A DNA stretch of 64,000 nt from Nitrospirota bacterium (GCA_016215115.1 JACRLN010000015.1:22741-86740); one strand, 5' to 3'. Counted from the first letter of the stretch, positions 17,602 to 33,464 are shown. Numbers and translations: made by a program. Notes: a model not told the origin generated them from the letters alone.

Positions 17602-17718
17602 AAAAGAAAGTACAAAGCGAGTTTTAAATTATTTCGGTACTGCGAAGTTGAAAGCCAGGATAGTTTATGATATAAGAAAATTAACGAAATTTAATTGAGT
17701 TACAAGAAGGAGGATAAA

Positions 17719-18345
17719 ATGAAGACAGGTTTTATTAAGATGACAGGTTTAATAATTATCAGCATTGTTATCTGCTTAATCCCTAACATTGCCAATGCGC
17801 ATTGTGATACGCTTGCAGGTCCGGTAGTGATAACTGCGAAAGCAGCGCTGGAAAAGGGAGATATAACGCCTATTTTAAAATGGGTGAAAAAAGAAAATGA
17901 AAAAGAAATTCGTGAAGCATTTGCTAAAACGTTGGCAGTAAGAAAGCAGAGCAAAGAAGCAAAGGAACTTGCGGATATGTATTTCTTTGAAACACTTGTC
18001 CGTATTCACCGCGCAGGTGAAGGTGCTCCTTATACAGGACTTAAACCAGGTGAAGCAATAGAACCGATTATCGCCGAGTCTGACAAGGCATTGGAGAGTG
18101 GTTCGTTTGATGATCTTGTAAAGGATGTGACGGATGCCGTGGCTAAAGGGATACGTGAAAAATTTGCCCATGCCAATGAGACAAGAAAACATGCAGATGA
18201 CAGCGTTGAAGCCGGCCGTGAATTTGTAGAAGCCTATGTAGTATTTACCCATTACGTTGAGAGATTGTATAACGATGCTACTGCTAAAGTTGAACATCAT
18301 GGAGAAATGAAGGCGTCGGAACCAGAAAAGCACCACCATCATTAA
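17719..18345 (+). CDS. Secreted helical protein (DUF6448-like) with His tail
   Basis: Signal peptide ending ANA, then HCDTLAGPVV; FFETLVRIHRAGEGAPYTGLKP; KHHHH C-terminus. Confidence 0.75.
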   Translation: MKTGFIKMTGLIIISIVICLIPNIANAHCDTLAGPVVITAKAALEKGDITPILKWVKKENEKEIREAFAKTLAVRKQSKEAKELADMYFFETLVRIHRAGEGAPYTGLKPGEAIEPIIAESDKALESGSFDDLVKDVTDAVAKGIREKFAHANETRKHADDSVEAGREFVEAYVVFTHYVERLYNDATAKVEHHGEMKASEPEKHHHH

Positions 18346-18348
18346 TTA

Positions 18349-18398
18349 GAGCCTGTTTATAAACTCTGTTAATCTGTCATTCCGGCAGTCCTTAAGCC
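18349..18398. repeat. Truncated left half of a GAGnCTGTtTATAAA MITE
   Basis: gagcctgtttataaa...gtcattccggcagtccttaagcc, then an abrupt end. Confidence 0.6.
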
Positions 18399-18518
18399 CC
18401 TTGTCTTTATAGGTGCTATAAAGGATAAAACCGTACTATGCATATTATTCCTCCACTTGTTTTATGGGCTATGAAGTGACTCTTACCAATTATGCTTGAA
18501 GGGATGGCCATGTCAAAA

Positions 18519-18548
18519 TTGACAACGATCCTAAAGTGCATTTATGAT
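18519..18548 (+). promoter_or_regulatory. sigma70 promoter for the SCO-PCuAC operon
   Basis: TTGACA-18 bp-TATGAT, 6 nt before in-frame ATG 18555. Confidence 0.6.
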
Positions 18549-18554
18549 GGTGTT

Positions 18555-19307
18555 ATGAATAAGAAGGAGAAGTCCCTTAACGCAGGCAAGGCAATAAAAA
18601 TACTTCGATTTGCATTTCCCGGAATGGTATTGCTTTTGCTCGGTATCTGGTTCGGAAAAGGTTTGAATACTGTTTCTGTTTTGAAAGAAACAGATGAATT
18701 CCCAAGCGCCACTGTATTGGAAGTTCCCGTTCCGCTGCCGGAATTTTTATTGACAGATCATAGCGGACAGGAATTTACCACTTCCAGTTTTAACAGGAAA
18801 TGGACTTTTATGTTTTTTGGATATACTCACTGCCCTGACATCTGTCCTACTGCGCTTGTTGATCTCAATGCCGTCTATAACAATCTTGCTGAAAAAGATG
18901 ACCTTATTGAGAAAAAATTCCACATAGGCACACAGGTCGTTTTTGTAACAGTGGACCCCCAACGGGATTCAGTGAAAGAACTGAAAGAATATGTACCTTA
19001 CTTCAACGATGACTTTATAGGATTAACCGGCAAGCCTGAGGTAATTGACTCGCTTGCGCGTCCTATGGGCGTTGCCTACAGGAGGGTGCCCGGAATGAAT
19101 TCAGAGGATTATCTTATTGATCACAGTGCTTCATTTCTGCTCATAGATCCTCTTAGAAGATTGCGTGCAATTTTCTCACCGCCTCATAACCCTGGTCAGA
19201 TTACAGAAAAGTTCCGAAAAATCCGCAAGAAATTTACAGAGGAATGCTGCATAACACCTGATAAGAAACTTGAAACCGTTATTTTTGATTACAGGGAGAA
19301 AAAATGA
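18555..19307 (+). CDS. SCO1/SenC copper chaperone
   Basis: FFGYTHCPDICP, VTVDPQRD, DHSAS; N-terminal TM. ORF track start is 18492. Confidence 0.92.
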   Translation: MNKKEKSLNAGKAIKILRFAFPGMVLLLLGIWFGKGLNTVSVLKETDEFPSATVLEVPVPLPEFLLTDHSGQEFTTSSFNRKWTFMFFGYTHCPDICPTALVDLNAVYNNLAEKDDLIEKKFHIGTQVVFVTVDPQRDSVKELKEYVPYFNDDFIGLTGKPEVIDSLARPMGVAYRRVPGMNSEDYLIDHSASFLLIDPLRRLRAIFSPPHNPGQITEKFRKIRKKFTEECCITPDKKLETVIFDYREKK

Positions 19308-19771
19308 AGAAGGTTATATCTGTTGTATACATTTTTGTTTTAACGGCTTTATGTTCATCAGTCTTTGCATCCGACGCTATCATGGTGCATAATGCATGGA
19401 TACGTTCAGCTCCGTCAAATGTTAAAGTAATGGCTGCATACATGACAATTACAAATATTTCCAATGAGACAAGGGCGATGACAGCAGTATCAAGCAAGTT
19501 ATTCAATAAGGTCGAGATTCATCGAACTGAAATGCATGAAGGCACGGCAAAGATGATATCGCAGAAAGAGTTGATAATCCCCGCCGGAAAATCTGTATCA
19601 CTTGAGCCGGGAGGATACCATCTTATGCTGATAGACCCAAAAACAGTGCCGCGTGAGGGGGAGCAAGTCGATATGGAACTGCACTTTGATGATGGCCAGA
19701 CATTACATATTAAAGTACCGGTTCGTACTGGAGCAGATAAGGGCAATATGATGGATAAACATCATCATTAA
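19304..19771 (+). CDS. PCu(A)C periplasmic copper chaperone
   Basis: AWIRS, AAYMTI, VEIH...M, LEPGGYHLML; signal peptide; ATGA overlap with SCO. Confidence 0.92.
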   Translation: MKKVISVVYIFVLTALCSSVFASDAIMVHNAWIRSAPSNVKVMAAYMTITNISNETRAMTAVSSKLFNKVEIHRTEMHEGTAKMISQKELIIPAGKSVSLEPGGYHLMLIDPKTVPREGEQVDMELHFDDGQTLHIKVPVRTGADKGNMMDKHHH

Positions 19772-19825
19772 ATATATCTTGCCTTGATAAGCATATTCTC
19801 TTTTTTTACTTTTGAAAACAAATTA

Positions 19826-20137
19826 TTACGCCGATGGTCTAAATTTCTGCCCCGGTTTTAACAGGATGAATTTGTCTGTACCTTCTTCCTGTTTAACTGT
19901 TTTGAAAAAGTCGCAAGACACACATGATACGAACTTTTTGGCAAAATCACATTGAACCTTTCCCCCGCAGAATGTACCGGCAACAGCCCAACAAATACGG
20001 CCTGCATTTTTGCCACCATTCATACCACTGCAGGAAGTTTCTGTGGAAGCCGGACATACTCCCATTTCTTTAACTTTGACTCTGCCAATCTCTTTTCCAC
20101 ATTTCTTGAATTCCCAACAATTTTGTTTAACTGACAT
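19826..20137 (-). CDS. Stand-alone two-CW Cys-rich domain protein
   Basis: NCWEFKKCG...CPA...NAGRICWAVAGTFCGG...CVSCDF; GAGG SD. Confidence 0.8.
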   Translation of the reverse strand: MSVKQNCWEFKKCGKEIGRVKVKEMGVCPASTETSCSGMNGGKNAGRICWAVAGTFCGGKVQCDFAKKFVSCVSCDFFKTVKQEEGTDKFILLKPGQKFRPSA

Positions 20138-20240
20138 TTTTTATCCTCTCGATATCGATAATACTATGTAGTATTAAAGCATATGATATTAATTTAAAAT
20201 AAGGATTAATAATTGATTATGGAAGGGTGAGAAAATCTAC

Positions 20241-21485
20241 CTACTGAATAAGGGACATAAGTTTCGTTTTGAGATTGATTTTTTTATTTGTAATGCCGAG
20301 TTTTTTTCTTATATTTCTACGGTGAGTCTTGATAGTGTCTATAGATATGTTTAAAATTTCCATTATTTCCTTATCTTGTTTCCCGTCTATAATCAAGTCG
20401 GATATCTGAATTTCTTTTGGAGTAAAATTCAAATACTTTGATGACAATCTTCGTGAAAAAGGAGATACTATTTCTTTCAGATTTGATTCGACGATATTCA
20501 CATATGTGAGGCCTCTTTTGGAAGTCAGCTTGTTATTTTTCAGTTTTTCCATATAAGGCAAGACCAACTGTTTTACATTAGACAAGATATTGTATTCAAA
20601 CTCTCTTCGGTCTTCATCCTTATGTTTTAAAAAGGCTTTTAGTGCTGCATTGCTTTCCATGAGCTCCTCTGCGTACAGCTTCAGTTCTCTTTCTGTATTC
20701 CTAAGCTTGTTTTCCCTCATCTTGCCCTCCGTGATGTCGCGGAAGTACCATACTCTCCCATAGTAGTTGCCGTTAGCATCTATTAAAGAAGAGGAATATC
20801 TGTCAAAATATCTGCCGTCTTTCAATGATATTTCATCTCTGCTTTTTTCCTCTCTGTTCGCATAAAGATACTTTACCTTTTTAAGGAATTCATCAGGTTC
20901 GTTCAGTTGAGTTATAGCATATTGAAGCAGTTCATCATCGTTTCCCGTATTCCATAATTCCTGCGGGATATTCCACATCTCCCTCATGAGATTATTATAT
21001 GAAATAACTTTCCCTTTATTATCTACTACAAGTATTCCATCAATTGAAGTCTCTGACTGGGCTTGAAGGAGGGTGGTCTTGAACAGCAGTTCATTCTCTA
21101 TATGAGCTTTCTGTAACGCCAACTCTGACTTCTTATGCTCGGTGACATCTTTAGCAATATGAACAGCGCCGAGAATCTCTCCCTTTTCATCAAATATGGG
21201 CGAGGTCGATACTTGTAAATAGATTTCCAGGCGGGTTTCAAAAAATTCCTCTGTAAACGGTTCTCCGGTTTCCATGGTCCGCTTATAAGGACAATCAGAC
21301 CGGGGCTCACTTGTCCCGTGAATCACTTCATAACATTTTTTCCCGATAAGCTCACTTCTTTTTTTCTTCAGGACATCGGAAAAGGCATTGTTTACCCTGA
21401 CAATATTAAAATCTTTATCATGAATTGAGATCAACTCACTAATAGAATTAAAAGCTGTTTCCCATTCGTTTGATGTTTTTCTCAT
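20241..21485 (-). CDS. PAS-PAS-LuxR HTH transcriptional regulator (possibly N-terminally truncated)
   Basis: GKKCYEV PAS, FTPKEIQI...TIKTHRRNIRKKLG HTH; no clear SD. Confidence 0.82.
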   Translation of the reverse strand: MRKTSNEWETAFNSISELISIHDKDFNIVRVNNAFSDVLKKKRSELIGKKCYEVIHGTSEPRSDCPYKRTMETGEPFTEEFFETRLEIYLQVSTSPIFDEKGEILGAVHIAKDVTEHKKSELALQKAHIENELLFKTTLLQAQSETSIDGILVVDNKGKVISYNNLMREMWNIPQELWNTGNDDELLQYAITQLNEPDEFLKKVKYLYANREEKSRDEISLKDGRYFDRYSSSLIDANGNYYGRVWYFRDITEGKMRENKLRNTERELKLYAEELMESNAALKAFLKHKDEDRREFEYNILSNVKQLVLPYMEKLKNNKLTSKRGLTYVNIVESNLKEIVSPFSRRLSSKYLNFTPKEIQISDLIIDGKQDKEIMEILNISIDTIKTHRRNIRKKLGITNKKINLKTKLMSLIQ

Positions 21486-21503
21486 TTTATTAATAATCAG
21501 TGG

Positions 21504-21720
21504 TTATTTTCTTATTCCAGGTACATTCCCAGCATTTTCCAAATATTTTTCTGTTACTTCAAACACATTAAAATAACCGTTAATCACCTGACCCTGGCTC
21601 TTGAATTTCCTGTCAGGCTCCACAGTCCCGATCTTTTTCTTTACCTCAGGCTTTTTCATGTCTATAACATAAACAGATGGGAAGGCCGGATCACCCCGGC
21701 CTTCCATGATAGAAATACTT
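21504..21720 (-). pseudogene. C-terminal remnant of a paralog of the adjacent beta-propeller
   Basis: VYVIDMKKPEVKKKI...GQVINGYFNVFE aligns with VYEIDLSGVSPLVSKKI...GQVVNTYTNIFE. Confidence 0.6.
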
Positions 21721-23100
21721 CTATTCAAATAGTTTTCCCGGAATTTCAAAGATGTTGGTATAGGTGTTCACGACTTGTCCGGTCCCGCCTCCTGCCGGGG
21801 TGGTTAAATCAGGCATCACTATTGTAATTTTTTTGGATACAAGAGGTGACACGCCGCTCAGGTCAATCTCATAAACGGCTCCGTCTACTCTGTTGGAGAC
21901 GAATCCCGTTTCGCCGTCCGCTGTAAATGTGATATGCCCTATATGTATGCCGGTTCCGACTGCAAGATCAGTTTGTGCCCAGTTATTTGACTGATCTAAG
22001 AGTGTCAGCATATTGGTTCCATACTTGGTAATTGCCACAGTCTTTCCATTAGGGCTGAGATAGGCATGGCCGTCCCCACCTGCAGATGTCACCACATGGG
22101 CTGCCAACTGTAATGTTGCCGCATCATAGACATCAACTGTAATGCCTGTAAGGTTATTACCGGGGCCGCGGTTGCAGAAGTAGAAATACTTGCCGTCCAG
22201 GCTGAAGTTTCCATGATGACCTTCAATCACCTCATTATTCACCAGTACACCGTTAAGCATGGGAACAGACATTGTTATGTTTTCCAGGTCAACAACGTAG
22301 ATATGTGGAGCAACAACAGGATTGGCAGAGTTATAAAGCGTCCCTGACGGACCTTCTGTTACAATCCACATCTCCTTGCCGTCATTGGAAGGAGCCATGT
22401 AATGCGGATTATTGTTATATCCCGGTATGGAAAGATCAAATGTTTTTACCAGGGTAAACAACTCGCCTTTCTTATTGGGCGTTTTAATTACATAGACCTT
22501 GTCGTCATCATAGCTTGATGTGAAGAAATATTTGCTGTTCCATGACCAAGCGTTATGCATCGACTGATTCCCGTTGGAGTTAGGATTAGTCAGAGTAAGG
22601 TCGATATTCTGATACACTGTATCGGTAGAGGCATCAATAAAGCTTACCCTTAGTGTTCCATCAGGATTACGCCTCCACTGGTTGACTCCTACCCATTTGC
22701 CGTTTGGGGAGACAATGGCATGCTTCGGCCTGATGTCGCCAGTTCCTATAATGATATCTTTAGTCTTTGCGAGTTTTCTGGTGCTGATCACTGTTACTGT
22801 GTTCATATTGGCGCCTGCATTACTCACGTACAGTTTTTTTCCGTTAGGCGTGAGCGCTGCGAGAGTGCCGCCTGTATTCACATCCCCCGGGATGCCGTTT
22901 CCGTCCACATCGGTGTCAATTGATTTAATAACCGCTCCTGTAGCCTCATCAATCACATTTACCAATCCCCTGCTATGCAAGGCATAGGTGTAAGAACTCT
23001 CTCCATCGTCATCGCCATAACTGACACTGGGAATAGCAAACACACCGAGTAAAAACAACAATACTAAACAACCTATACTTTTAAAACACTTTTTAGTCAT
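21721..23100 (-). CDS. Secreted YVTN/YncE-like seven-blade beta-propeller with His at blade starts (putative multicopper protein)
   Basis: Sec signal; repeated (S/T)P(N/D)GK blade motifs; His 127, 182, 233, 295, 296, 345, 386/389; GGAGG SD. Confidence 0.8.
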   Translation of the reverse strand: MTKKCFKSIGCLVLLFLLGVFAIPSVSYGDDDGESSYTYALHSRGLVNVIDEATGAVIKSIDTDVDGNGIPGDVNTGGTLAALTPNGKKLYVSNAGANMNTVTVISTRKLAKTKDIIIGTGDIRPKHAIVSPNGKWVGVNQWRRNPDGTLRVSFIDASTDTVYQNIDLTLTNPNSNGNQSMHNAWSWNSKYFFTSSYDDDKVYVIKTPNKKGELFTLVKTFDLSIPGYNNNPHYMAPSNDGKEMWIVTEGPSGTLYNSANPVVAPHIYVVDLENITMSVPMLNGVLVNNEVIEGHHGNFSLDGKYFYFCNRGPGNNLTGITVDVYDAATLQLAAHVVTSAGGDGHAYLSPNGKTVAITKYGTNMLTLLDQSNNWAQTDLAVGTGIHIGHITFTADGETGFVSNRVDGAVYEIDLSGVSPLVSKKITIVMPDLTTPAGGGTGQVVNTYTNIFEIPGKLFE

Positions 23101-23285
23101 GTAACCTCCTCTTTTGATAACAACTATTTACCAGAGCGAAATGCCTGGCTGTTTCCACTTATCCCGCGCTTTCACCTCCTTTCAGAGAAAATTGGTTGAC
23201 AGGTAATTTTTGAATTCAAAGATTTTGTAATTTCAAAAAAACTTAATCCGATAAGACAAGAGTTTCAGTGATAGAATACTTATAA

Positions 23286-23300
23286 GCAATTATGATTCCA
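23286..23300 (-). promoter_or_regulatory. sigma54 -24/-12 promoter for the beta-propeller gene
   Basis: Minus strand TGGAATCATAATTGC with correct GG-N10-GC spacing. Confidence 0.7.
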
Positions 23301-23377
23301 TGATAAGAATTAACAGATTATCGTTTAAAATGCACCGGATAAGCGAAGCTTGCTATTTATATAAACCGTATAGAAGC

Positions 23378-23482
23378 GCAACAAATTTTGCAGTCAACTC
23401 ACAAAGGGATTATTATCCCTTGAATATTAAATATATTTTTCAGAAACGCAAAAGATGTTGCAGGCTTGCAAAAGATGTTGCA
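23378..23482. promoter_or_regulatory. Three candidate enhancer (UAS) sites for the sigma54 activator
   Basis: GCAAAAGATGTTGCA at 23448 and 23468 (20-bp period) and inverted GCAACAAATTTTGCA at 23378. Confidence 0.6.
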
Positions 23483-23497
23483 CTATTTTGGAAGGAC

Positions 23498-24913
23498 TTA
23501 TGAACTTCTTGATTTCCTCAGCAGCCGCCTGTTAAGGGCCTGACGGGTAATGCCCAGAAAGGATGCAGCGATGCCCTGTTTACCTTTAGCGCGATTCATT
23601 GCCTCAGCTATTGCAAAGTCTTCGATTTCATTCAGGGTAGGAAATCTTCCCTGAATTTGCGGCCACACGATTGATTCCTTAAGAGGTTCAGAAAGAAGCT
23701 CTTTCCCATATGCTCCTTTCTGAATGAGATAATGCTTGAAACTATCAACTGACAGTGAACCGGATTTATATTGGGCAACGATATCATAAACCATAGTCTG
23801 CAGCTCACGCACGTTACCGGGGAAATTATAATTTGAAAGCAGGGTTACAATCTTGTGCGAATATACAGGCTTTCCTTTTGACAGTGATTTTAAAGCCTGT
23901 TCAAGGAAATAGTCAAAAAGCAATGGTATATCTTCACTCCTTTCACGCAGTGGGGGAATATGAACACTATGACCGCAAAGTCTGTAATATAAATCTCTCC
24001 GAAACGTTCCATCGGCAATTGCCTTTTCAAGGTCTTTATTGGTAGAGGCAACAATACGCGCATCGCTTTTTCTTGGGACATCAGCGCCAATCGGGTAGTA
24101 TTTCTGTTCCTCAAGAAGACGCAGGAGCTTGACCTGCGAGATCTCATTTAGGTCGCCTATTTCATCAAGAAGCAAAATCCCTCCTGATGCCTGAACAATC
24201 AGCCCCTCTCTTTCCTGTTCAGCGCCGGTAAAAGCCCCTTTTTTATGACCAAATAGTGTATCTGAAAATATTGCATCATCAAGGCCGGCCACATTCACTG
24301 GGACAAACTTGCCCTTCAGTCCGCTCAAGACATATATTGCTTTTGCAAGCAGTTCTTTCCCCACGCCGGTTTCACCAAAGATACAAACAGGCCTTTGTGT
24401 CTTTGCAATTGCTTCAACGTAACGGAAGATGGACAGCATTTTGAGGCTGTTCGTAATGATTGACGAAAAAGCATCCTCGCATTCAATGCCGTCGGCAAGA
24501 AGATGGTGTTTGAGATAAGACACTTCATTATGCAGGTCTCTGAACTCAAGCGCCATTGTAACACTCGTAATAAAACGGTTCTTGTCAACAGGTTTGACGA
24601 GATAATCAAAGGCACCTTCTTTCATGCACTCCACGGCGGTCTTCAATTCATTTACAGCAGTCATGACAATAACCGGTATTTGGGGGAATTCACGTCTGAT
24701 TTTTGAGAGCAATTCATTTCCTGACATATACGGCATAACCAAATCCAGCACGATAACAGCTACATTCTTTTCAGATAGTAACTGCAAAACTTTCCTGCTG
24801 TCCTCAAGAGTCAGAACCGGAGCAATTCCCGCATAACGCAGGAAAAGGCTGTAGTTGAGTAAGATTTCTTCCTCGTCATCTACGAGGAGTATCGGAAGAC
24901 CATCGCTGTTCAA
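23498..24913 (-). CDS. NtrC-family sigma54-dependent response regulator
   Basis: REC domain, GETGVGKE, GAFTGA, LLDEIGD, FPGNVREL, Fis HTH; TTG start with AGGAG. Confidence 0.95.
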   Translation of the reverse strand: MNSDGLPILLVDDEEEILLNYSLFLRYAGIAPVLTLEDSRKVLQLLSEKNVAVIVLDLVMPYMSGNELLSKIRREFPQIPVIVMTAVNELKTAVECMKEGAFDYLVKPVDKNRFITSVTMALEFRDLHNEVSYLKHHLLADGIECEDAFSSIITNSLKMLSIFRYVEAIAKTQRPVCIFGETGVGKELLAKAIYVLSGLKGKFVPVNVAGLDDAIFSDTLFGHKKGAFTGAEQEREGLIVQASGGILLLDEIGDLNEISQVKLLRLLEEQKYYPIGADVPRKSDARIVASTNKDLEKAIADGTFRRDLYYRLCGHSVHIPPLRERSEDIPLLFDYFLEQALKSLSKGKPVYSHKIVTLLSNYNFPGNVRELQTMVYDIVAQYKSGSLSVDSFKHYLIQKGAYGKELLSEPLKESIVWPQIQGRFPTLNEIEDFAIAEAMNRAKGKQGIAASFLGITRQALNRRLLRKSRSS

Positions 24914-26796
24914 TTAATTGCTCCTTAAAACGTAATTTATCATATACTGGAAATGTAATACAGGCGGTAGATCCCTTGCCCGGTTCAGAGGTAAATTCCA
25001 TACTGCCTTTATGCTCCTTTATGATTGCATATGATATTGAAAGCCCAAGGCCGGTACCGCCCTGATTTAACTTCGTAGTGAAAAATGGCTCGGTAATACG
25101 GAGTCTTGTCAATAGGTGTGTAAATAGCCATCAGGCGGCCATCCTTTCCAGCACCTTTGATTCTTGTTTTATCACCCCATCGACAAACGTTTTTCCGTTA
25201 TAAACATCAGGCAGCAACCAGTGACCCTTTAGGGAGCGAACATGTAACGTGAAAATTATTGGTGAATTTTTTTATTTCTGCATTAAGAAAGAATATTGCG
25301 TTCTCAACAACTTTATTGACGTCGACTTTCTCGTCCAAGTTTCCTGTGTCAGCTCTGGCAAAGTTTTTTAAACTGTCAACAATGTTTTTTATCCTTTCCG
25401 TACCTTTGGTAATAGTGTTAAGCAGTCTTGGAACAAGACTCTGAATTTCCGAAAATTTCATATCTCCGATAGGGAAATCACCGTTTTTTTTGTAATGCTC
25501 GTTAAGCACCTGAAAGATATCTTCCCAGATGTCATTGAACAGTTGAGCATTGGACATTATAAAGCTGTTGGGGTTGTTAATCTCATGGGCTACGCCTGAA
25601 ACGAGGGTGCCGAGGGAAGTCATCTTGTTTGCATGAATAAGTTTTGCCTGAATTATCTTCGCCTCTTCTTCTCGGGCCTGCTCCTCTGCCTGTTTTTTTA
25701 TAATCTCACGCGACCTGACAACTTCTTCTGTCAAATGCTGAAAACGTTCTTCAAGGATATGGAGCTGGTCACCTTTCTGTATTTCCTGCTGCTGTAAGCC
25801 CAAAGTATGCTGAGAGAAATCAGCTACGCGGCGTGTTACGCGTTGAATGCGCTGCGTAATCCAGAATGTGACTGCCGCAAAAGCAGTTATAAACACAATA
25901 GCCGATATGGCGCGCTCCCTGCGCTCCTTCGTAATAAGCGTTCTGGTTAATGAATTCACCTCTGTCATTGATATGAACGAGGCGAATCTCACAACAAGTT
26001 CCGAGGAGCCGTAATCAAAAAACTCCTTGCCGGTCATAAGATAACCGTCCTTCAGAACATCAAGCGGTGTGCCTTCCGGAATTGCCGTAAGATTACTGCT
26101 CGTCAGCACGCGGGGATTTTCCCCCGGAGTCAACAACGCCGCTACGCCTCTGTTTGTTGAACCGCCAATTGAAGCGTTCAGAAATTTCTCATCTATGGGG
26201 GTGGCAAGCATCAACGTGGCAAGCAGATTTTGATGAGAATCCGCATACGGAGCGGATGTCACCAGAAAAGGGGCGCTGTTAAAAGTGATCAGGTAGCTCT
26301 GCCCGCTGCTTTTTTCAATGAGCAGGCCCGGCGGATGAAGCAAAGGCTGCGGCAGAGTCTCCTTATAGCTTTGATATGCCTCTCTGACATTTCCCCGTGA
26401 ATCTATTAATAATGCGTAACCTGGGGAGGCAAGTGTGTGCAGCATTGAACGGCTGGGAAACCACGGCGGAGGGTGATCGTAATACGCAACCCCGGCTATA
26501 TTTCCTTCATGCCATTTGCGGCTCTCAATATAATCACTGAAGTTCTTTTGTATTATGGAAAGCCTTGCCAGGTGCTGATAGACCTTTACATACCGGTCAA
26601 ATCGAAGCCGGTCTTCCATTGCCTGATGTCCGAGTCTTTCAGTTAATTGAGCTAAAAAAATATCCTTTATTCGGCGGCTCTGAACATAATCCAGTACAAC
26701 CCATAACACAATCCCCGTAATAACGCTGATCGCTGTCAGCTTGAAGGTTAACGGAATCCGGTAATACCGATTACGACATTCTGTGCGAATATTCAT
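24876..26796 (-). pseudogene. Membrane sensor histidine kinase broken by an IS remnant, with N and G1 boxes deleted
   Basis: 5' part has VAHEINNP and ends at NFHVTC. 3' part resumes at RITEPFFTTK...GTGLGL in a separate ORF. Confidence 0.8.
25101..25238 (-). mobile_element. IS256-family right-end remnant
   Basis: Encodes RSLKGHWLLPDVYNGKTFVDGV...ERMAA* followed by TTTACACACCTATTGACAAGACTC terminal repeat. Confidence 0.75.
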
Positions 26797-26869
26797 AGCG
26801 AACTCAATAAAATGTATTTAATAAACCACCTTATCTTTCACCGTGCCTCAGCGCCTGCGGTTAATGGTA

Positions 26870-27901
26870 TTATCGGGATAAATGCGCATCTGGCTCCCCG
26901 GTTAATTCATTGCCTTTAAATTTCCAGCCGGCTTTTCGCAGACGTGAAGCGGGAATGATGTTGTGCGCTTTATCAAGGTTTTCAACATGCTGCAATAAAT
27001 ACTCAACCAATCCTTTGGCGCGCGGATTTTCAACCCCCTTCCCTTCCCAAGTTGCAAGATTATAGACGCGATATAATGGATACCTCAGGGATATCAGATG
27101 TTCCGCTTCATACGGGCTGTAGCCGTTAATCCTGATGGCTTTAACTTTCCCTTTATCCTTATAACGAATGGTGTTCCATAAAACTTCATATCCTATGGCT
27201 CCAGGATTTAATGCAACCTGAGAAATCATATCGGGAATGGCCCCTACATCTTGAATGCCTGGGTCAAACATATCTTCGTTGTCAAGGAGCAGCCGCCAAT
27301 GTCCCGGTCTTAATTTGCAGTGCAATCTTGTTACAGGTTGAATCAGCAGGTTTGGACCCTTGCCGCCGTTGGAAGTAGTCAGCTCTGACCAGCGGCGGAT
27401 TTCTCCTCTAAAAATCTGCCGAGCCTGTCCGATTGAAATGTTATCAACAGGATTAGCAGGATGGACCAGAAGCGCCTTCGCATCAATTCCAAGCGTATGA
27501 AACCTCAGCCCGGGCAGCCTGTCTGTTTTGTCAGGCGGACAGCAAAATCCGCCGATATCCACTGTTTTATTAACCAGCGCGCCTGAAGTAATTCCACATG
27601 TGCCCTCATTAACGACAATCCTGAGTTTATGTTTTTTCCCGTATTCCTGAATAAGGGGCTGTAGGGCGTCATACAGATGCTGATCAAGGGAAAGCACAAG
27701 GTCTGCATCACCTTCCGATTTCTCATATTTAATAGGTTGTCTTATCCAAACCTCCGGCATCGATTGTGTTTGCAAAGGATCAGTAAAAGACGGCCCTTTT
27801 GCATTATCTTGTGTGTTGTGTCCGGTAAATCCTCCTGTTAAAAATAATACCAGCACGGCAAGAAAGTATATGGGAAACATTCGACGCCTTGATATTTTCA
27901 T
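26870..27901 (-). CDS. PstS-like periplasmic binding protein with Cys/His motifs, upstream of the kinase
   Basis: VHPANPVDNIS, IFRGEIRRWSEL, NPGAIGY, YPLYR; extra GTCG, GGFCCPP, RLHCKLRPGHW. Confidence 0.78.
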   Translation of the reverse strand: MKISRRRMFPIYFLAVLVLFLTGGFTGHNTQDNAKGPSFTDPLQTQSMPEVWIRQPIKYEKSEGDADLVLSLDQHLYDALQPLIQEYGKKHKLRIVVNEGTCGITSGALVNKTVDIGGFCCPPDKTDRLPGLRFHTLGIDAKALLVHPANPVDNISIGQARQIFRGEIRRWSELTTSNGGKGPNLLIQPVTRLHCKLRPGHWRLLLDNEDMFDPGIQDVGAIPDMISQVALNPGAIGYEVLWNTIRYKDKGKVKAIRINGYSPYEAEHLISLRYPLYRVYNLATWEGKGVENPRAKGLVEYLLQHVENLDKAHNIIPASRLRKAGWKFKGNELTGEPDAHLSR

Positions 27902-28184
27902 ATTATTTCCTCTTTCCCCGTTCATAGGTTTTAGATGTAAAAACAATTACCTCGTTTTTTGACAATAAATAAGGTGGAATATTTATTTGTTTTTAGTATA
28001 ACAAAACAACAAATAAGTATAGTGATTTTTATTCTATATGAAGATGAGTAGACTTACAAAGAAGCTGCATGATAGAACGTAGAACTTATAATCTTAATCA
28101 GTAATTAGTAACTTTTGACAAGCCCGAAGAAGTATTGCTTGGTGATAGGAATATCTTGATATAAAGAAGATCAAAACCCGTGAG

Positions 28185-30572: not shown

Positions 30573-30974
30573 ATGTATGTAACAAGAAAAGCAGATTATG
30601 CCATTCGATGCGTTCTTTATCTGTCGAGACATGTTGAGCGGGTGGCAAGTGTTGAAGAGATTTCAGGGGAAATGTCTGTCCCGAGAACCTTTCTCGCTAA
30701 AATCCTCCAGCGTCTCTTGAAGACAGGTATTGTGAAGTCTATCCGCGGAGTGAAAGGAGGGTTTCAACTTGCGAAGAAACCTCAGGACATTAACCTTCTT
30801 GAGGTGATAGAGACTATCCAGGGATCCTCTGCGGCAAATATATGTGCGATTGATAAAAGGTTGTGCAAACTCAGCAACACCTGCAGTGTTCACCCTGTTT
30901 GGGTGGAAATAAGAGGAATGGTAGAGAAAAGACTGAGAGAAGAAAATTTCGAAACATTGTTAAAGAAGAAATAA
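30573..30974 (+). CDS. Rrf2-family Fe-S transcriptional regulator
   Basis: DYAIR, RGVKGGFQLAK, C-x6-C-x5-C-x2-H. Confidence 0.92.
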   Translation: MYVTRKADYAIRCVLYLSRHVERVASVEEISGEMSVPRTFLAKILQRLLKTGIVKSIRGVKGGFQLAKKPQDINLLEVIETIQGSSAANICAIDKRLCKLSNTCSVHPVWVEIRGMVEKRLREENFETLLKKK

Positions 30975-31117
30975 TATTTTTTAAGGTAAATCAGTATATT
31001 GTTTGTCCTGTTTCATCATATAAGACAATATTGGCGGTTATTGTCATTTAAAAGAATTGCAATTTGATATAGATGTGATATAAATGAGAAAAGGAGTTTA
31101 TTAAGAAGGAGGCTTTT

Positions 31118-32515
31118 ATGAGCGATTATCAATACGATAATGAGACAGTGAAAGGTTTTATTATTTCCTCCATCTTCTGGGGAGTGGTGGGTATCCTTGT
31201 AGGTCTCTGGATATCCATACAGATGTGGGCGCCCTCGTGGAATATCCCGCCTTATTTTACTTTTGGAAGATTGAGGGTAGTACACACAAACGGTCTTGCG
31301 TTTGGACTTGGGATAGGAGCGATCTTCGGCATTTGCTACTACATTACGATGAGACTTACGAAGAGGCCGCTTTTATTCCCCAAACTCGCAAGGTTTCATC
31401 TGTATCTTTTTAATGCAGCGATAGCCCTTGCTGCATTAAGTTTATTTGCGGGGATGAACCAGTCCCTTGAATATGCGGAGCTGGAATGGCCTCTGGATGT
31501 CGGCGTTGTCATCCTATGGGTTATCTTTGCGGTTAACATCTTCGGTACGATAATAAAGAGGAAAGAGGAGCAGATGTATATATCCCTCTGGTTTATCATC
31601 GCAACGGTTATTACAGTTGCTGTGCTGTATATCGTTAATAATCTGTCTATCCCTGCTGGGCTGTTCAAGTCATACCATCTCTTTGCCGGCGTAAACAGCG
31701 CTAACGTTGAATGGTGGTACGGGCATAATGCGGTCGGTTTTATATTTACAACGCCGATACTCGCAATGTTCTACTACTTCCTGCCGAAGTCAACAGGGAT
31801 CCCGATATACAGCCACAGGCTTTCCATTATTGCATTCTGGTCGCTGGTGTTTGCATATCTGTGGACAGGAGCGCACCATCTGATTTATACACCCCTTCCC
31901 GACTGGATACAGACCCTCGCCATAGTATTTACAATTTTTCTGATTGCGCCTTCATGGGGCTCTGTTGTGAATGGTTTTTATACTGTAGGAACCGATTGGT
32001 CCAAGATGCAAACAAATTACCTTACAAAGTTTTTTATTCTCGGGATAACCTTTTACGGTCTGCAAACAATACAGGGACCTACTCAGGGCTTAAGGGTTGT
32101 AAGCCAGTTAATCCATTACACCGACTGGGTGCCGGGACATGTACATATGGGCACCATGGGCTGGGTAACCATGACAGTGGCAGCCTCCATCTATTACATC
32201 ATTCCCAGGATATATGACACGGAGATATACAGCGAGAAGATCGCTAACACACACTTCTATCTCGTTTTGATAGGACAGCTTATATTTTCTATTACTATGT
32301 GGATTACAGGTATTCAGCAGGGCGCTCTGTGGAAGGCAGTAAATCCTGACGGCAGCCTCAAATATACGTTCATGGAAACTCTTGTGAGGAATTACCCGTT
32401 CTGGAAGATGAGGACTGTAGGCGGCGTGATATTTACTATCGGTATGCTATTTTTTATTTATAACATTTTTATGACCATACGCAAGGGTAAGTCCCTTGCG
32501 GCGGCAAAGGCATAA
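31118..32515 (+). CDS. ccoN: cbb3-type cytochrome c oxidase subunit I
   Basis: GRLRVVHTN, WWYGHNAVGF, GAHHLIY, WVPGHVHMG. Confidence 0.96.
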   Translation: MSDYQYDNETVKGFIISSIFWGVVGILVGLWISIQMWAPSWNIPPYFTFGRLRVVHTNGLAFGLGIGAIFGICYYITMRLTKRPLLFPKLARFHLYLFNAAIALAALSLFAGMNQSLEYAELEWPLDVGVVILWVIFAVNIFGTIIKRKEEQMYISLWFIIATVITVAVLYIVNNLSIPAGLFKSYHLFAGVNSANVEWWYGHNAVGFIFTTPILAMFYYFLPKSTGIPIYSHRLSIIAFWSLVFAYLWTGAHHLIYTPLPDWIQTLAIVFTIFLIAPSWGSVVNGFYTVGTDWSKMQTNYLTKFFILGITFYGLQTIQGPTQGLRVVSQLIHYTDWVPGHVHMGTMGWVTMTVAASIYYIIPRIYDTEIYSEKIANTHFYLVLIGQLIFSITMWITGIQQGALWKAVNPDGSLKYTFMETLVRNYPFWKMRTVGGVIFTIGMLFFIYNIFMTIRKGKSLAAAKA

Positions 32516-32528
32516 GGGAGGTGAGAGA

Positions 32529-33464
32529 ATGACAGGTGAAATATACAGAAAACCGGTAATGTTTGCGATAGTCGCCACTGTCGTTATCCTTATTGGTACG
32601 GCAATAACCATGTTTATTCCCATGCTGACGCCCCAGATGCATCCAAGGCTTGAAAATCTGAAACCTTTTACGGCCCTTCAGCTTGCGGGAAGGGATATAT
32701 ATCAGAGAGAGGGCTGCAATAACTGCCATACCCAGACCGTCAGGCCCCTCAAGACCGAAGTAATGCGATACGGTGAATATTCAAAAGCAGGTGAATTCGC
32801 CTATGACCATCCGTTTTTATGGGGTTCAAAGAGGACGGGGCCCGACCTTGCAAGGGTCGGCGGGAAATATCCCGACGCATGGCACTACAGGCATTTTGAA
32901 AACCCGCAGGCCTTCTTTGCAGAATCCAACATGCCTGTTTACGAATGGCTTAAGGACAACAAACTTGATCCGGCAAAAATTGAAGCGCATATGAAGGCGC
33001 TCGGATTCCCATACATACCTGAAGATATTGAATTGCTGAAAGACAAGACCGAGCTTGATGCGCTCGTTTCATACGTTCAGGTTATAGGCGCCTCGGTTAC
33101 AAAAAAAGCTGTACCGATGGCAACGCCGGCAGTTACGGAGAAAGAGCACATTTCAAATCCGTTTGCCGGTGATCCGAAAGCAATCGCAGCAGGGAAAAAT
33201 ATCTTTGCTAAAAATTGCGCTGTTTGTCACGGGGAAAATGCACAAGGCGACATCGGTCCGAACCTTACGGATAAAGCATTTTTATATGCAGAAGGAGATG
33301 TGCCGGATGACGATTATTTTGAGATTATCAACAACGGAACGACCCCCGGCATGATTGAAGAGGGGCGTACGGCAAAAGGCGGTATGATCCCGTTCAAAGA
33401 CACTTTAAGCAAAGACGAAATATGGTCGGTAGTCGCTTATATAAGGTCAATACAGGGGAAATAG
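32529..33464 (+). CDS. ccoO: cbb3 oxidase subunit II fused to a CcoP-like cytochrome c domain
   Basis: EGCNNCHTQ, WGSKRTGPDL, then CAVCH...IGPNL...GGM. Confidence 0.92.
   Translation: MTGEIYRKPVMFAIVATVVILIGTAITMFIPMLTPQMHPRLENLKPFTALQLAGRDIYQREGCNNCHTQTVRPLKTEVMRYGEYSKAGEFAYDHPFLWGSKRTGPDLARVGGKYPDAWHYRHFENPQAFFAESNMPVYEWLKDNKLDPAKIEAHMKALGFPYIPEDIELLKDKTELDALVSYVQVIGASVTKKAVPMATPAVTEKEHISNPFAGDPKAIAAGKNIFAKNCAVCHGENAQGDIGPNLTDKAFLYAEGDVPDDDYFEIINNGTTPGMIEEGRTAKGGMIPFKDTLSKDEIWSVVAYIRSIQGK

Follow-up and report, generated by a model that had tools for sequence, protein, structure and literature searches.

Propeller gene and conserved histidines

We analyzed a 64,000-nucleotide stretch of a Nitrospirota genome (GCA_016215115.1, JACRLN010000015.1:22741-86740), hereafter the window, in which positions are counted from the first nucleotide. 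Its minus strand carries a gene (21721-23100) for a secreted eight-bladed beta-propeller of the YVTN/lactonase type, P0001, downstream of genes for a sigma54-dependent sensing circuit. The 459-amino-acid (aa) product begins with a hydrophobic Sec-type signal, as read from the translation, and has cysteines at positions 5, 11 and 309 only. Neither a CxxCH motif nor a CuA motif (CX2FCX3HXEM) occurs anywhere in the sequence, confirming an initial annotation of this region that had described a Sec-exported propeller lacking both. The source genome, which is 99.4% complete, contains a single copy.

The initial annotation had also pointed to histidines at the start of six successive blades (PKH127, SMH182, NPH233, GH295H296, DGH345 and H386xxH389). 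In an alignment of 69 sequences that span 30-92% identity to P0001 and come from Nitrospirota, Aquificota, Deinococcota, Thermodesulfobacteriota and Pseudomonadota, seven of these residues (H127, H182, H233, H295, H296, H345 and H389) are 100% conserved, as they are in a 26-sequence alignment; the pattern therefore stands except for H386, which is conserved in only 25% of the 69 sequences. H42 is conserved in 74%. Seven of the 11 histidines of P0001 fall among the 50 near-invariant columns out of 459 (hypergeometric P = 2.9e-5). H127, H182, H233, H296, H345 and H389 each stand four residues ahead of the S/T-P-x-G turn of their blade and, because they share this offset, mark one equivalent repeat position in six consecutive blades. 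The histidine ring occupies blades 3-8, and blade 2 has an invariant leucine at the equivalent position. The same 69 sequences share invariant K126, M181, Y234, E249, N310, R311, Y347, Y360, F451 and E452. From the equivalent positions on the innermost strands and from precedent, we infer that the seven histidines converge on the central pore, which almost certainly holds metal ions. Our favoured reading, held with moderate confidence, is that P0001 represents an undescribed family of periplasmic metalloenzymes with a multinuclear, histidine-bound centre.

Family extent and distribution

A word-indexed search returned 88 relatives, seven of them at 63-70% identity to P0001 and a large group of 400-430 aa at 34-43%. 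Their source names are limited to "YncE family", "YVTN family" and "cytochrome D1 domain-containing", much as the initial annotation had anticipated for a protein that would normally be labelled YncE-like. When 1.84 billion cluster representatives were searched exhaustively, there were 12 matches at E <= 1e-30 and 32 at the looser limit of E <= 1e-10, and since everything past those 32 was a single-blade match to generic propellers, the family is discrete and small. Fused forms of at least 805 aa were not found at E <= 1e-20, which is weak evidence. We found no dedicated Pfam or NCBIfam model, and a literature search, which did not extend to AztD network clusters or COG0523 neighbour tables as possible prior listings, returned no description of the family.

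Among Pfam models, P0001 gives weak, generic propeller matches to Lactonase, PD40 and Cytochrom_D1 (25.0 bits for the last, cut-off 25.5). In NCBIfam, YVTN-type models score far under their cut-offs, PQQ_ABC_repeats reaches 54.7 of the 287 bits needed, and hydrazine synthase beta matches weakly. Hydrazine synthase beta is also the only solved structure recovered by sequence (E 2.3e-8), over about one blade pair. Orthology to YncE or NirF, which the initial annotation would have taken as a refutation, was not seen above any curated cut-off.

In species-representative genomes, 85 stretches encode relatives, of which 80 loci were kept. Hosts comprise Nitrospirota (including locus L001, whose propeller is 92% identical to P0001), Thiobacillaceae, Rhodocyclaceae, Thioalkalivibrio, Chromatiaceae, Thiomargarita, Acidiferrobacteraceae, Hydrogenophilales, Meiothermus, Thermus, Aquificaceae, Hydrogenobacter and Caldimicrobium. 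Within Nitrospirota the propeller occurs in 11 of 301 sampled genomes (E <= 1e-40) and is absent from the one genome of the same genus. The hosts are patchily distributed and belong mainly to lineages of sulfur oxidisers, chemolithotrophs and hot-spring bacteria, a pattern that counts in favour of an enzyme.

Export signals, read by eye, differ between clades. Twin-arginine (Tat) signals are seen in all 12 propellers linked to a COG0523 gene, in all five from Thermaceae and in that of L080, a member of the same type as the COG0523-linked ones whose contig is too short to show the neighbour and which was left out of our quick tree of the family. The DUF3299-linked propellers of Rhodocyclaceae have lipoprotein boxes, and the propeller of L056 carries a His-rich tract behind its signal peptide.

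Fold and comparison with known propellers

An alignment-based AlphaFold2 model of P0001 (pLDDT 86.8, pTM 0.86) has the strand pattern of eight blades. A wide structural search of 48,161 representative chains likewise ranked eight-bladed proteins at the top, with NirF (Z 34.2, 356 residues aligned) ahead of cd1 nitrite reductase (Z 33.6) and NirN (Z 32.9); the Z scores of WD40 and designed eight-blade proteins were similar. Lower ranks held AztD (6ck1; Z 27.6, 327 residues aligned), tetrathionate hydrolase (24.8) and Escherichia coli YncE (24.8, rank 41). The likeness to NosZ and thiocyanate dehydrogenase (TcDH) invoked in the initial annotation was not borne out, as both of those are seven-bladed. 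Their representatives lay outside the 50 best chains, which is no proof of differing folds, and in Foldseek TcDH first appeared at rank 35 (TM-score 0.53-0.54, root-mean-square deviation 9.5-9.9). A look-alike cluster in the ESM Atlas carries the automatic name "putative methanethiol oxidase", and the MtoX model matches three of 26 family members (best E 1.5e-4); both are leads only.

The top structural matches would suit a NirF/NirN-like tetrapyrrole binder or a non-metal YncE-like scaffold, a reading that we consider very improbable. Three relatives do exceed the cut-off of Cytochrom_D1 (PF02239), a broad model, with 54-77 bits (P0066, P0009 and P0085, of which P0066 scores 77), P0001 itself comes close to it, and the invariant Arg, Lys and Tyr side chains might serve to bind carboxylates. 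P0001, however, has no haem c domain, and seven invariant histidines at equivalent blade positions are unlike the pattern of NirF and NirN, which is a single axial histidine and not a seven-histidine ring. Queries with Cytochrom_D1 and NirJ2 revealed no haem d1 pathway in the source genome: there was no other Cytochrom_D1 protein over the cut-off, and the best match to the NirJ2 model scored 311 against 500 bits. On the YncE side, the NCBIfam model 7_blade_YncE matches 21 of the 26 members weakly (best E 6.9e-14, under the cut-off) and is not listed for P0001, whose eight blades also differ from the seven of YncE.

The metalloenzyme reading invites comparison with NosZ and with L-NosZ, the clade III lactonase-type nitrous-oxide reductase. 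Like P0001 they have seven histidines at the start of innermost strands, including one HH pair (H295-H296 in P0001), and L-NosZ also shares the YVTN/lactonase-type repeat; all 26 members match the L-NosZ model weakly (best E 1.5e-25), although to about the same degree as they match generic YVTN models. P0001 scores 21.3 bits against a cut-off of 700, whereas a genuine L-NosZ from a Nitrospirota genome (L084) scores 751. L084 has a CuA segment (CQQFCGPLHLEM), whereas P0001 has neither that motif nor a cupredoxin domain. When the NosZ CuZ motifs DXHH/GXHH, PHG, GPLH and EPH were tested, L084 was found to carry GIHH, NPHG, GPLH and GEPH, and P0001 instead EGHH, NPHY, DGHA and IGHI. NosZ moreover has seven blades rather than eight, and the HH pair of P0001 sits in the sixth blade. 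In a BLASTP alignment with L084, H127, H345 and H389 fall on the second histidine of GIHH (the DXHH/GXHH motif), which we take to be a ligand of CuZ. As judged from these alignments, ligand position and repeat type are common to L-NosZ and the propeller family, but membership of L-NosZ can be excluded. No L-NosZ was found in the source genome.

TcDH is a periplasmic propeller whose pore is rich in histidine, with Lys and Glu in addition, and holds a trinuclear copper centre. The His-rich pore is a point of likeness, and Thioalkalivibrio hosts both proteins. The profile match, however, covers about 78 positions, or one to two blades, at E 1e-5 to 1e-6, and a search of solved structures with residues 80-180 of P0001 did not return TcDH.

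Sigma54 sensing circuit

A candidate sigma54 -24/-12 promoter of the form GG-N10-GC (TGGAATCATAATTGCT; 23285-23300, minus strand) lies about 185 nt upstream of the propeller ATG. Farther upstream on the same strand (23377-23482) are three palindromic repeats of the type TGCAAC-N4-TTTGCA that resemble activator sites: TGCAACATCTTTTGCA at 23467-23482, TGCAACATCTTTTGCG at 23447-23462 and TGCAAAATTTGTTGCG at 23377-23392. These are the promoter and the three repeats likened to upstream activating sequences that the initial annotation had reported. Taken alone, TGGAATCATAATTGCT is a chance-level match, given that the window holds 28 matches with at most two mismatches against 28 ± 5 expected, but its position and the enrichment of such sites upstream of homologues lend it support. 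Sites scoring at least 5/7 were present upstream in 14 of 75 usable loci, compared with 2.7 ± 1.5 for segments drawn at random from these loci, an enrichment of about five-fold; no more than seven were reached in any of 200 draws. The source genome also contains rpoN.

The minus strand upstream of these sites encodes an NtrC-type sigma54-dependent response regulator with receiver, AAA+ and Fis-type helix-turn-helix domains (23498-24913), a sensor histidine kinase (24876-26796) and a periplasmic binding protein with a PstS fold (26870-27946, with a likely start ATG at 27901). The triad is thus present as first annotated, with the reservation that the kinase is interrupted. Its main open reading frame (ORF) covers 25207-26796 and the break lies near 25100-25222. 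The L001 orthologue aligns with one frame over residues 1-510 and with another over residues 567-640, and the counterpart of residues 511-566, in the ATP-binding domain, is missing. Orthologues of 640 aa are found in L001 and L002, and the break could reflect either a pseudogene or an assembly error.

The binding protein has a fold like that of PstS phosphate-binding proteins (Foldseek E 3e-17, TM-scores 0.63/0.80) and presumably senses the ligand for the triad. Its four invariant cysteines lie in the motifs GxC, GxCCP and RxHC, and R192, H194 and R203 are also invariant. Several proteobacterial copies have twin-arginine-like signals. Selenocysteine was considered for matches with in-frame TGA codons and rejected, since these codons sit beyond stop codons.

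Neighbours of the homologues were tallied by tblastn over the 80 loci, 41 of which extend for 3 kb or more to either side, and genes in these loci were called by frame composition together with the tallies. NtrC-type genes occur in 17 of the 80 (second query). The binding protein with the GxC and GxCCP motifs was found in 12, at 0.2-4.6 kb from the propeller, after exclusion of a weak, motif-less match in L037. L102 and L103 have this arrangement too, and loci with the circuit are scattered over several clades of the tree. The three-component sigma54 circuit is linked to the propeller across phyla.

The sensor module extends beyond the propeller, because a binding-protein profile (E <= 1e-80) matched 26 of the 301 sampled Nitrospirota genomes, including six of the 11 with a propeller; the cysteine motif was verified in a subset of these copies. 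The Cys-lined PstS-fold proteins form a family of their own that reaches up to five copies in one genome (G262) and mostly occurs without the propeller. This family is apparently a sensor module of NtrC-type systems that has gone unstudied and, with most of its 26 host genomes lacking the propeller, is widespread. The order of events from periplasmic sensor through kinase, NtrC-type activator and sigma54 promoter to a periplasmic output recalls AioXSR and ZraPSR. Here, by contrast, the binding protein has a PstS fold and is not of the AioX type, and the cut-offs of curated models for those systems were not reached.

Copper genes in the window

The initial annotation had placed genes for SCO and PCuAC about 2 kb from the propeller and regarded them as its own copper chaperones. 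The position is right: both follow the propeller's 3' end at a distance of 2-3 kb and are oppositely oriented, in a plus-strand operon (17695-19771) that consists of a DUF6448 gene (17695-18345), a SCO1/SenC gene (18492-19307) and a PCuAC gene (19304-19771). Their membership of the propeller system is not supported. Within 3 kb of the homologues, SCO occurs in two of the 80 loci and PCuAC in one. L002, whose propeller is 66% identical to P0001, has both directly beside it, and L005 has SCO 3 kb upstream; L001 has neither in its 10-kb flanks. Among 146 proteins flanking the propellers of L001-L042 (a 1253-aa ORF of L011 was left out of 147), SCO and PCuAC are not among the 25 commonest Pfam families, whereas kinase and sigma54-activator domains are each found 6-8 times, DUF3299 seven times and cytochrome c four times.

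The plus strand also encodes an Rrf2-family regulator and a cbb3-type oxidase 11-13 kb beyond the SCO and PCuAC genes (30573-33464). The oxidase (31118-33464) comprises a CcoN-like subunit of 465 aa (31118-32515) and a CcoO/P-like subunit of 322 aa (32496-33464) in which FixO is fused to a cytochrome c domain. Haem-copper oxidases are usual clients of Sco and PCuAC chaperones. Because of the low tallies in homologue loci, we read SCO and PCuAC of the window as better explained by service to haem-copper oxidases, with the cbb3 oxidase as the likely client.

A multicopper enzyme loaded by the neighbouring SCO and PCuAC is accordingly an unlikely account of the propeller. Beyond the proximity of the chaperones in the window, in L002 and, for SCO, in L005, it could draw on the invariant M181 beside H182, which would suit Cu(I), on the fact that all-histidine multinuclear sites are typical of copper, and on the adjacent DUF6448 protein. 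Against this, the tallies are low, the window and L002 are kin whose shared synteny counts once, and the oxidase is a sufficient client. Copper, zinc and nickel are all candidate metals of the propeller, and the metalloenzyme reading that we favour is tied to none of the three.

The DUF6448 product itself is secreted, with His-Cys-Asp following the signal peptide and HHHH at the C-terminus, and looks from its sequence like a metal-handling protein of the copper operon.

Partners in other genomes

More common than copper chaperones are partners of kinds tied in the literature to zinc handling, namely ZrgE, ZrgA, MacB-type ABC transporters and COG0523 proteins. Twelve of the 80 loci have, no more than 300 bp downstream of the propeller, a gene for a COG0523 GTPase that bears a CxCC motif; for DUF3299 (ZrgE) the count is 11 at this distance and 12 when the limit is widened to 3 kb. 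DUF3299-propeller pairs, often with overlapping ORFs, are found in at least three separate places in the tree. An ABC ATPase occurs within 3 kb in 10 loci. The L032 locus of Thioalkalivibrio denitrificans has, in this order and on one strand, genes for the propeller, ZrgE, ZrgA (Pfam E 4.5e-58), an ATPase and an FtsX/MacB-type permease. DUF3299 corresponds to ZrgE of the zinc-deficiency-induced zrg operon, in which zrgE, zrgA, zrgB and zrgC are induced 75- to 205-fold under zinc deficiency in Vibrio parahaemolyticus (PMC9817125). Clustering of COG0523 subfamily 5 genes with beta-propeller genes and znuABC was already noted by Haas et al., 2009 (PMC2770081).

These partners raise the possibility, less probable in our judgement than an enzyme, that the propeller is an AztD-like periplasmic metal chaperone, buffer or sequestering protein, whose pore histidines would hold zinc (or copper) exchanged with ZrgA/ZrgE-ABC or other binding proteins, while the triad senses periplasmic metal status in the way that ZraS/ZraR control ZraP. 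AztD (PDB 6ck1/6cmk) is a secreted eight-bladed propeller with histidines from successive blades and with COG0523/CobW and ABC neighbours. AztD of Paracoccus denitrificans binds zinc in its pore through H124, H167 and H218 of three successive blades, is Zur-controlled, and is often encoded beside CobW-type genes (PMC6689063). The spacing of that triad is similar to H127/H182/H233 of P0001. Such a role would also fit the tight coupling to ZrgE, the complete operon of L032 with its zinc-responsive counterparts in Vibrio, the adjoining CxCC-bearing GTPases, the His-rich tract of L056 and the lack of a regular redox partner.

The pore of AztD has three histidines, whereas the propeller family has seven. 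No equivalent of the His-x-x-His-x-Asp element of AztD site 2, a transferable zinc site on an N- and C-terminal extension, was noticed in P0001, which has an invariant F451-E452 tail at its C-terminus. Several observations count against the chaperone reading. The AztD model (NCBIfam NF038015) matches only two of 26 members, at E 0.015, and the profile match between P0001 and 6cmk_B likewise has E 0.015. The source genome yielded no DUF3299 gene and only one cobW/HypB-type gene, of 260 aa. About ten invariant non-ligand polar residues resemble an active site more than a docking surface for multiple partners, and Tat export in two clades would be odd for an apo scavenger. Control differs as well, being exerted by Zur in AztD and by sigma54/NtrC in the propeller family, even at the zrg-like operon: upstream of the L032 operon are two perfect TGGGGCA-N3-TGCCCCA palindromes and a GG-N10-GC element (L032 2662-2715), which suggests control of its zrg-like genes by sigma54 and not by Zur. 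By eye, and with no motif finder used, no shared Fur/Zur-type box was seen upstream of the COG0523- and DUF3299-linked genes, where the sole perfect 16-bp palindrome was that of L073.

An ArsP_1-type permease is adjacent in four loci and within 3 kb in five, with DUF1980 in three. Other contexts involve sulfur and metalloids. In Meiothermus, an FCSD-type flavoprotein, a SoxC-like molybdoenzyme and a cytochrome c are encoded upstream of the propeller. One plus-strand run in genome G013 (L101, 6997-13737) encodes a TsuA-like transporter, a 95-aa ORF, the propeller, a C_GCAxxG protein, ArsS (357.7 bits, above the cut-off of 300), YedF and an arsenosugar glycosyltransferase. To judge by these annotations, L101 is a neighbourhood for sulfur, selenium and arsenic handling, and the immediate neighbours of its propeller recur in two related genomes.

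Proposed function

In the metalloenzyme reading that we favour, the seven-histidine ring would bind a bi- or trinuclear metal centre by means of two sets of three neighbouring histidines and one extra, an arrangement that may be likened to CuZ, to the TcDH centre or to type-3 copper sites, and the enzyme would act on a small periplasmic substrate. Transcription would start from the sigma54 promoter and be activated by the adjacent NtrC-type regulator, which would receive its signal from the kinase together with the PstS-fold binding protein. Four Cys, two Arg and one His line the anion pocket of the latter, a composition that suggests a thiophilic anion, a metalloid or a soft metal as the signal. 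In other lineages, metal could be supplied in the periplasm by ZrgE/ZrgA and a MacB-type ABC transporter or, before Tat export, by a COG0523 GTPase. The family itself, its ring of histidines, the fold, the link to the circuit and the partner genes are results of the analysis; that the protein binds metal, how many ions it holds, that it is a catalyst and what its circuit senses are inferences.

Besides the distribution of hosts and the BLASTP alignment with L084, four observations favour an enzyme. The roughly ten invariant polar residues beyond the histidines are more than metal ligands alone would need; control is by sigma54/NtrC instead of an obvious Zur site; Tat export in two clades fits folding or metal loading before export; and some contexts, in Meiothermus and G013, belong to sulfur or metalloid metabolism. 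Weighing against it, no redox partner is consistently adjacent (cytochrome c accounts for four of the 146 flanking proteins scanned), most of the 80 loci lack an informative neighbour and the contexts are heterogeneous. The commonest specific neighbours, ZrgE/DUF3299 and COG0523 at 12 of 80 loci each, are of the kinds that surround the zinc chaperone AztD, which shares the eight-bladed fold and a pore histidine triad. The interrupted kinase adds that the circuit may be dead in the source genome, unless the assembly is wrong.

Altogether, the initial annotation is partly supported in that it rightly recognised the kind of system, a periplasmic propeller lined with histidines that had not been described before and that a sigma54 circuit controls, and was wrong or unproven as regards copper, dedicated chaperones and seven-bladed NosZ/TcDH similarity.

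To our knowledge, all known nitrous-oxide reductases are propellers lined with histidines, and thiocyanate dehydrogenase is another. If a further family has as many ligands as these and is widespread in sulfur-oxidising and thermophilic hosts, it could hide an unknown step of the sulfur, nitrogen or metalloid cycles. More tentatively, these propellers might constitute an independent family of His-lined catalysts beside NosZ, L-NosZ and TcDH, eight-bladed and periplasmic, with a CuZ-like multinuclear seven-histidine centre, a small sulfur, nitrogen or metalloid substrate transformed in chemolithotrophs and hot-spring bacteria, a new kind of Cys-lined PstS-fold sensor and lineage-specific metal loading (ZrgE/ZrgA with a MacB-type ABC transporter, or COG0523 before Tat export). 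If this were true, the enigmatic Zrg components would gain a client; if the propeller is a chaperone instead, it would represent a second propeller route for periplasmic metal traffic.

Other genes downstream of the propeller

An 81-codon ORF (21504-21749, minus strand) that overlaps the 3' end of the propeller gene is the remnant of a second propeller copy. Over 52 aa it has 42% identity (E 4e-8) to the final part of the propeller, with its last blade and C-terminal tail. Directly downstream of the propeller, a regulator with the domain order PAS-PAS-LuxR (GerE) and no receiver domain is encoded on the minus strand (20241-21485). None of the 80 homologue loci showed a match to this regulator less than 3 kb from the propeller, and one locus has a match farther off. 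Between this gene and PCuAC, also on the minus strand (19826-20137), lies a gene for a small protein with two CW domains (NCBIfam NF045718, 99.7 bits), eleven cysteines and no signal peptide. Homologues of this protein are encoded directly downstream of the L002 propeller and within 3 kb of that in L001.

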